Of a DNA stretch of 64,000 nt, positions 1,174-3,204 are shown piece by piece (position 1 is the first letter of the stretch; each line of letters begins with the position of its first letter). A program made the translations under genes and the position numbers. The notes beneath the pieces are model-generated. The model had not been told where the DNA came from and did no database searches. It saw nothing but the letters and a program-made list of their open reading frames with translations. This DNA is from Candidatus Nomurabacteria bacterium (GTDB lineage: Bacteria; Patescibacteriota; Minisyncoccia; Phycocordibacterales; UBA9973). The DNA lies in NCBI GenBank assembly GCA_963842815.1, contig CAWJHU010000001.1:12866-76865 (forward strand). The letters run 5' to 3'.

Positions 1174-3204
1174 CTATTTTAGCATATCTAAGAATTCTTT
1201 CTCGTTTAGAATTTTTACCCCCAATTTTTGCGCATTTGTCAATTTAGAACCCGCTTCCTCCCCTGCCACAACATAGGAAGTACTTTTGGAAACCGAGCCG
1301 GAAACTTTTCCGCCCAGAGAAATAATTTTTTCTTTGGCTATTTCACGGGACATTTGCGAAAGAGTGCCGGTTAAAACAAAAATCATTCCGTTGAATTTCC
1401 CTGTTTTTATTTTTTCCACTTTTTCTATAATTACGCCATTCTTTAGCAATTTTTCTATGAAAAACATGTTTCTTTTATCCTGAAAATAGTCAAAAACGCT
1501 TTTGGAAACTGCTGGCCCGATATTTTCTATATTATTTATTTCTTCAATTTTCGCCTTGGAAAGCTTGTTCCAGCGTGCCAAAATTCATAGCCAAATCTCG
1601 GCTGTTTCTTCCCCCACATGAAGGATACCCAAGGCCCAAAGAAATTTTGAAAATGGAATTTTTTTCTTATTTTTTATTTCCTGCACGATATTTTCCGCGC
1701 TTTTTTCTCCGAATCGTTCCAGTGGAGCGATATCTTCTTTATTGAGAGTAAAAATATCGGCCGCGTCGGTTATCAAGCCTTCATCTTTGAAACGCCTTAA
1801 AATTTTCGGACCCAGTTCATAAATTTCAAAAGCGGAAACAAAATGCTCCAAGTATCTTTCATCTTTGGCCGGACATTTGGGATTGACGCAGTAATAGGCT
1901 ACGGAAGTTTCCAAACTTCCGGTATTTCTTTTCTCCACCTTTCCTCCGCAGGCCGGACATTTTAAAACCATTTTAAATTTCTTTTCTTTGCCGCTACGCA
2001 TGCGGGTTAAAACTTCCACCACTTTCGGAATGACGTCTCCCGCTTTTTCTATCACCACCGTATCTCCTATTCTTAAATCAAGTCTTTCTATCTGGTCCAC
2101 ATTGTGCAAAGTGGCTTTGGACACAGTAGAGCCGGCAACGGAAGTCGGTTCAAAAATGGCCAGCGGAGTAAGCACTCCGGTCCGCCCAACATTTATTTTT
2201 ATATCTTTCACCACCGTCGTCGCCTTCTCCGCCGGATATTTGAAAGCTGCCATATAACGGGGAGCTTTGCCCACAACTCCTAAAATTTCTTGCAATTTTA
2301 AATCATCAACCGATATCACAACACCGTCTGTACCAAAAGGAAAATCGGGTCGGATTTTTTCAAATTTTCTGATGAAAGTAATAACTTCTTTCATATCTTT
2401 GCAAATTGCACTGTCATCATCCATCTTAAATCCGAGTTTTGCCAGATATTTGTGTTTTTCCGAATGCTTTGTTAAGTTTTGTCCGTCAAAAATTTCAGCT
2501 ATGTCGTATGCCGAAAAATCAAGGTTCCTTTCAGCTGACAATTTTGGGTCCAATTGTCTTAGGCTCCCGGCCGCCGCATTTCTTGAGTTTGCAAAGAGCA
2601 TTTTGCCTTCTTTTTCATTTTTTAAATTTAATTTTTGTAGTGTCTTTCTGCTCATTAATGCCTCACCGCGAACTTCAATATATTCAGGCGCTGCCGGCGA
2701 GGCTAAAACAAGCGGGATGGATTTGATTGTTCGTAAATTTTGAGTAATGTCTTCTCCGATGAATCCATCTCCCCTGGTGGCGCCTTTGGTAAATTTTCCT
2801 TTTTCATAAATAAGCGAGACGGCCAGCCCGTCGAATTTCACTTCACAAAAATAATTAACCTCACCCCTGCCCTCTCCTGAAAGGAGAGGGGGCAAAAGTT
2901 TTATTATTCTTTTTTCCCAATCGTATAATTCCTCCTCGCTGAACACGTCATTGAGCGAGAGCATTCTGGTTTTATGTTTTACTTTCAGAAATTTATCCAG
3001 CGGTTTGCCAGCTACTCTGTTTTCCGGAGCGTTGGGGTCGTTAAATTCAGGATATTTTTCTAAAAGAGCTTTTAGTTCTTTCGTCAGAGAATCATAAACA
3101 TCATCCGTCACATTGGGCAGATTTTTGGTATGGTAAGCATCCCGCAATCTCGCGATTTCGCTTCGCAATTTTTCTATTCTTTTTTGAACTTCTGAATTAT
3201 CCAT
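1174..3204 (-). CDS. ligA: NAD-dependent DNA ligase LigA, interrupted by an in-frame TGA at 1585-1587 and a local frame excursion
   Basis: The 539-aa ORF has the adenylation domain (KxDG: '[10 protein letters not shown]'), an OB fold, a Cys4 zinc finger ('CPACGG...C..P.C') and HhH motifs. The downstream 135-aa ORF is the BRCT domain. The conserved 'FGTLEQAF' helix is readable only in a third frame between 1558 and 1596. Confidence 0.9.
2856..2895. repeat. ~37-nt GC-rich palindromic element (aacctcacccc..ccctctcctgaaaggagaggggg) embedded in-frame in ligA
   Basis: Same element as at 45246-45315 and 46300-46345. Here it is translated as [15 protein letters not shown]. Confidence 0.7.

Follow-up and report, generated by a model that had tools for sequence, protein, structure and literature searches.

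Frameshifts caused by residual indels are well documented in metagenome-assembled genomes (MAGs) from long reads, in particular where coverage is lower than about 40x (PMC9262707), also for Nanopore-only MAGs with Medaka polishing (PMC12313526), and tools for such artefacts have been described (PMC12007338, PMC8812927). The break in ligA described here, which lies in a window of 64,000 nucleotides (the whole stretch of DNA that was analysed), very probably represents a case of the familiar frameshift artefacts that indels cause in draft assemblies and not a real feature. As with the long-read artefacts, the changes comprise single bases only, a single contig has several conserved genes affected, and an independent assembly lacks all of the indels; moreover, this contig is long and resolves near-identical tandem repeats, as is the case for long-read assemblies. 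Unlike the typical artefacts, most indels of the window lie outside homopolymers and are clumped in substitution-dense islands of conserved genes. A similarity to compensated frameshift mutations is also given, since a -1 and a +1 change occur a few codons apart and the frame is restored. In genuine cases, however, translation between the two changes proceeds in the new frame without meeting a stop, whereas the stretch between the two ligA indels includes a TGA and, in the old frame, still specifies the ancestral peptide. Compared to E. coli LigA (2OWO), the LigA of the window as assembled is interrupted in its HhH domain, at the equivalent of E. coli residues 526-535.

The ligA gene as assembled and as repaired

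The coordinates of all features are collected in Table 1. An earlier note on this DNA had described ligA as split by a TGA on the minus strand, and this holds true, as the frame-0 ORF ends at this codon and the same frame resumes at position 1581. Pfam assigns the adenylation, OB and Zn-finger domains together with the first HhH domain to the upstream ORF, while the end of HHH_2 and the BRCT domain fall into the downstream ORF. Repair of the frame yields a full-length LigA of 676 aa, which reached 789.4 bits with the equivalog model NF005932 (cut-off 369; model positions 1-664 of 664) and 733 bits with the equivalog model TIGR00575 (cut-off 444). Reading through the TGA instead resulted in 777 and 722 bits, so that the repair gains about 11-12 bits. 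PF01653, PF03120, PF03119, PF12826 and PF00533 all scored above their cut-offs, the repaired protein has the full architecture of Ia, adenylation, OB, Zn-finger, HhH and BRCT, and the KxDG lysine motif of the adenylation domain can be read directly as KFDG within CEVKFDGLA. E. coli LigA aligns along the whole repaired protein and ungapped across the repaired stretch. The gene itself is an ordinary LigA.

For comparison, we used three Logan contigs of run ERR10755942 (L001, L163 and L164, the latter two recovered via identical neighbouring proteins), which represent a slightly different strain with a divergence of 0.3-0.6%. The closest match among the GTDB representatives was 80% identical at the protein level, and the relatives are Nomurabacteria/Paceibacteria. 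L001 (3,207 bp) is 99.6% identical to window positions 110-3316, from which it differs by 11 substitutions and two gaps of 1 nt. An uninterrupted ligA frame, which is not present in the window due to the TGA, is present in this contig: it encodes P0001, an intact LigA of 676 aa with 99% identity and the closest protein on record. In the repaired frame, nine of the 11 substitutions are synonymous, one of them within the shifted stretch, and the other two are Val/Ala and Val/Ile exchanges. The truncated LigA of 539 aa (P0006) is on record from a single contig of 337,777 bp only, evidently the one from which the window was taken, and a degenerate DNA pattern for the intact and the shifted forms of ligA gave no match in the JGI metagenomes.

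Relative to L001, the two indels compensate each other as a -1 followed by a +1 change 30 bases apart, and frame 0 is right again from NKLSKAK on. The assembled window reads GCCGAGATT at 1602-1594 and CTGGAACAAG at 1573-1564. At the upstream site, L001 reads GCC-AGA-GAT, from which the window lacks the A (GCC[A]GAG in this nearest relative); at the downstream site it reads CTG-GAC-AAG, and the change is of the homopolymer type (A to AA, or G to GG). In 79 of the 81 related loci, the residue after EETA is an Arg, for which the relatives use the codon AGA or CGA, and the region HVGEETARDLAxxFGTL[DEN]KL is kept in a single frame in all 80 related GTDB genomes as well as in L001. Accordingly, the frame shift was found in none of the 81 related loci. 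The decapeptide encoded in the alternate frame agrees in all ten positions with P0001 and P0002, the proteins nearest to it, and conforms to the pattern RDLAxxFGTL, which most of the 81 related loci share; therefore, this match is not due to chance. Behind the shifted stretch, the restored LigA continues with [D/N]KLSKAKIEE, while the next relatives after L001 read GTLNRLSKAK and GTLNKLSKAK.

These data also specify the reconstruction made in the earlier note. The comparison with the 99.6% identical contig confirms its pair of compensating 1-nt indels, and the second frame across the break indeed matches the conserved HhH segment, with E. coli 2OWO aligning ungapped there and with the residues given in the note. 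The upstream site had been placed at about 1596, close to the actual position, whereas the downstream site at about 1558 was wrong by about 11 nt. The proposed conserved helix FGTLEQAF could not be upheld: EQAF is read out of frame, frame 0 being correct from NKLSKAK, and the restored peptide was wrong over four residues. The HHH_2 scores show the same gradation, since the repair of the earlier note gained over the read-through (65.9 compared to 51.6 bits) but remained below the repair guided by relatives (75.4 bits).

Table 1. Coordinates of ligA, of the single-base gaps and of the divergence islands in the window.
Feature	Position	Strand	Remarks
ligA, NAD-dependent DNA ligase	1174..3204	-	profile and Pfam matches, E. 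coli LigA alignment
N-terminal ORF as assembled, 539 aa	1585..3204	-	frame 0; ends EETAEIWL, then stop
C-terminal ORF as assembled, 135 aa	1174..1581	-	same frame as N-terminal ORF; last HhH motif and BRCT
TGA inside ligA	1585..1587	-	shifted GCT ATG AAT read in frame 0 as CTA TGA
ligA gap, missing base	between 1600 and 1599	-	window GCC GAG, L001 GCC AGA G (Arg)
Shifted HhH-domain stretch, ten codons	1570..1599	-	readable in alternate frame only
ligA gap, extra base	1568..1571, within GGAA	-	window CTGGAACAAG, L001 CTGGACAAG; alignment gap at 1569
ftsH gaps	37820, 37805, 37736, 37523; 37666	-	extra base each at the first four, missing base at 37666; ftsH 36796..38739
tmRNA gap	~39124	-	extra T compared to L163; tmRNA gene 38974..39374
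VirD4/TraG-like ATPase gap	~47645		extra T; gene 46387..49153, strand -
rplR (ribosomal protein L18) gap	~55041		missing G; gene 54739..55081, strand -
ligA island	1522-1632		divergence 5.4%, flanks 0.07-0.24%
ftsH island	37402-38739		divergence 2.24%, flanks 0.10%
Ribosomal-protein block island	53559-55253		divergence 1.12%, flanks 0-0.07%

Single-base gaps and divergence islands across the window

The ligA gene is not the only broken gene of the window. L163 showed 99.4% identity to positions 37402-44556 and L164 showed 99.7% identity to positions 47536-56030. Over the 18.86 kb that the three contigs jointly span, 70 substitutions and 10 gaps were counted, and every gap comprises a single nucleotide, while gaps of three or multiples of three were absent. 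Nine of the ten gaps are located in coding sequence and one in the tmRNA gene, where the extra T is probably another consensus error. For all nine coding gaps, the frame of the relatives is kept in the Logan contig and broken in the window; none of the ten single-base indels is present in L001, L163 or L164.

In ftsH, which is intact in L163, the frame changes five times within about 300 nt and is regained, because the net change amounts to +3. The product shows 93% identity to P0121, rising to 100% in the shifted part, and 30 substitutions in the gene lead to about four residue changes. The break in rplR is located near codon 15, by which the first ~15 codons are lost and an ORF of 91 aa remains, compared to an L18 of 113 aa in L164. 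The VirD4/TraG-like gene is split into overlapping ORFs of 552 aa and 413 aa, while the junction is spanned by a single ORF in six relatives (e.g. 926 aa in L085) and the gene is intact in L164. A shift in the GGGG run at ~47637-47640 was considered for this gene and rejected, as the alignment with L164 places the extra T at 47645. A tblastn census with the ORFs of 162 related loci, covering ~32 kb of the window, revealed frame changes in ligA, ftsH and the VirD4-like gene only; the break in rplR was detected solely by the DNA alignment with L164.

The distribution of the indels is uneven, with two within 30 nt in ligA and five within 300 nt in ftsH, and eight of the ten lie within islands of raised substitution density compared to the ERR10755942 strain, the background being ~0.1%. 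In ligA, eight of the 13 differences fall within 111 bp, for which the chance probability is ~7e-6. Since the substitutions in the islands are mostly synonymous, they look like real alleles. The islands may be explained either by a consensus of a mixed population or by recombination tracts. In the former case, reads of related Nomurabacteria populations would have been recruited onto conserved genes during consensus building, resulting in hybrid alleles and indels; in the latter, the tracts would be genuine and poorly polished. If the coincidence of indels and islands is general, it could serve to flag unreliable consensus sequences from metagenomic long reads.

Origin of the interruption

Altogether, the in-frame stop of ligA very probably results from consensus indel errors in a Candidatus Nomurabacteria (Paceibacteria) MAG that is itself probably derived from long reads, and, judged from the comparison of sequences, ligA in the living cell is almost certainly one intact gene of 676 aa. 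The loss of one base at the upstream site and the addition of one at the downstream site would have moved ten HhH codons out of frame and thereby created the TGA. As the likely cause, we assume an incompletely polished long-read consensus, the faults of which may be most severe at conserved genes that attract reads of related populations. Consensus errors are preferred over decay or recoding because only 1-nt gaps occur, non-synonymous change is not in excess, and ligA, ftsH and rplR would otherwise be dead in one cell; all three genes are normally indispensable. A long-read origin of the assembly is suggested by the contig of 337,777 bp and by the three near-identical tandem units of 640 bp resolved in the window, while Nanopore as the specific platform is conjecture. 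Two observations speak against a simple error. Simple homopolymer +1 changes account for only about three of the ten indels, which is not the classic Nanopore signature, and the clumping of the indels needs an extra assumption, e.g. mixed pile-ups or locally low coverage. In addition, the contigs used for comparison belong to a slightly different strain and perhaps to another sample.

The earlier note had regarded ligA as probably intact in vivo, which agrees with the intact LigA of 676 aa in the second assembly of essentially the same organism. It had left the choice between a pair of homopolymer-type sequencing errors and a very recent double mutation. The sequencing-error branch is favoured, since the second assembly contains an intact ligA and the window holds eight more 1-nt indels that are all absent there; the homopolymer type, however, applies only to the downstream site in ligA. 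A genuine double mutation would make ligA a pseudogene or split it into a catalytic fragment of 539 aa and a C-terminal HhH/BRCT fragment. The assembled sequence does read in this way, and the surrounding 111 bp differ from the nearest strain by a local cluster of synonymous changes that look real, so that this segment could represent a distinct allele. Nonetheless, we consider this explanation unlikely: due to the TGA between them, the indels could not have been selected as a compensating pair, ftsH with five indels and rplR with one would be dead in the same cell too, an excess of non-synonymous change is seen neither in ligA nor in ftsH, the truncated protein occurs in one assembly only, and gaps that are all 1 nt long and never a multiple of three are the reverse of the pattern that persists in real coding regions. 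Still less probable is a variant in which the indels are real and the islands are recombination tracts from related Nomurabacteria, with the clustered single-base indels arising from error-prone synthesis at integration. In this variant, several essential genes would be inactivated in the lineage that the MAG represents, or in a sub-population of its genome copies.

Two further explanations would leave the assembled bases untouched and still allow a full-length LigA, and we regard both as highly improbable. In the case of programmed recoding, the ribosome would shift by -1 at GCC GAG A and by +1 ~30 nt later, or the polymerase would slip. The exact restoration of the frame and the perfectly conserved peptide in the alternate frame would fit, but neither an X XXY YYZ slippery heptamer nor a long homopolymer is present at 1594-1605 or 1565-1575, the arrangement of two shifts is absent from the 99.6% identical strain and from all 80 relatives, and the shifts in rplR and in the VirD4-like gene, which lack a compensating partner, as well as the five in ftsH cannot be explained in this way. 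The other explanation is an alternative code in which TGA stands for Gly or Trp (code 25 or 4), by which ligA would form one continuous frame-0 ORF. TGA is reassigned in some lineages of the candidate phyla radiation (CPR), and both ligA ORFs indeed share a frame with only the TGA between them. Against such a code, the relatives are Nomurabacteria/Paceibacteria, which are not among the lineages known to use code 25, the read-through peptide EIWLxILARW is unlike the family and scores 24 bits below the frame-repaired one on HHH_2, the LigA models likewise give the lower read-through scores described above, and TGA serves as the terminator in 12 of 69 long ORFs of the window.

Taking consensus errors as the explanation, an annotation of this MAG at face value would describe an organism without functional DNA ligase, FtsH and ribosomal protein L18, leading to false claims of gene loss for a CPR bacterium with a reduced genome and to lower completeness estimates. 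The main value of the observation lies in quality control: the absence of decay, combined with gaps that are always 1 nt long and with a frame kept intact in a near-identical assembly, forms a pattern whose recognition permits reference-guided repair or re-polishing.

Further features of the window

Besides the frame shift, the ligA gene carries an insert of 11 codons at ~2866-2900 (minus strand), for which a short palindrome, cctctcctttcaggagagg, provides the coding sequence. The resulting 11 residues are found in the window and in L001 and are absent from LigA proteins with 83-85% identity, while the LigA of other relatives shows different in-frame inserts in the HhH region.

For an ORF of 143 aa at 172-603 (minus strand), no sequence match was found in Pfam or PDB. 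It shows a LAGLIDADG-like N-terminal motif (ILGASLYACEG), is also a gene call in L001 and overlaps the 5' end of a tRNA-Ser(GGA) at 107-194 (minus strand) by ~20 nt. The tandem units of 640 bp mentioned above are located at 7338-9154 (minus strand), and each of the three comprises a pilin-like ORF pair of 154 aa and 61 aa. Their identity ranges from 93% to 100%, with 99-100% between copies 1 and 2. They were found by a repeat search and missed by TRF, the period limit of which is 500.

A phosphoglucomutase/GlmM-like gene on the plus strand is split into an ORF for domain I (39899-40315, 138 aa) and an ORF for domain II-IV (40302-41219, 305 aa), which overlap by 14 nt. The same split is present in L163 and in one JGI relative, while L083 contains a single ORF of 478 aa with ~32 extra residues at the junction. 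This split looks like a genuine lineage-specific feature and not like an assembly error.

A serine tRNA with an A at position 34 is unusual in bacteria. In the window, ARAGORN detected a tRNA-Ser with the anticodon ACT in the loop TTACTAA at 33678-33765 (plus strand); a normal tRNA-Ser(GCT) is located at 33481-33570 (minus strand). Both L090 and L112 conserve the TTACTAA loop, and their anticodon stems show compensatory changes.
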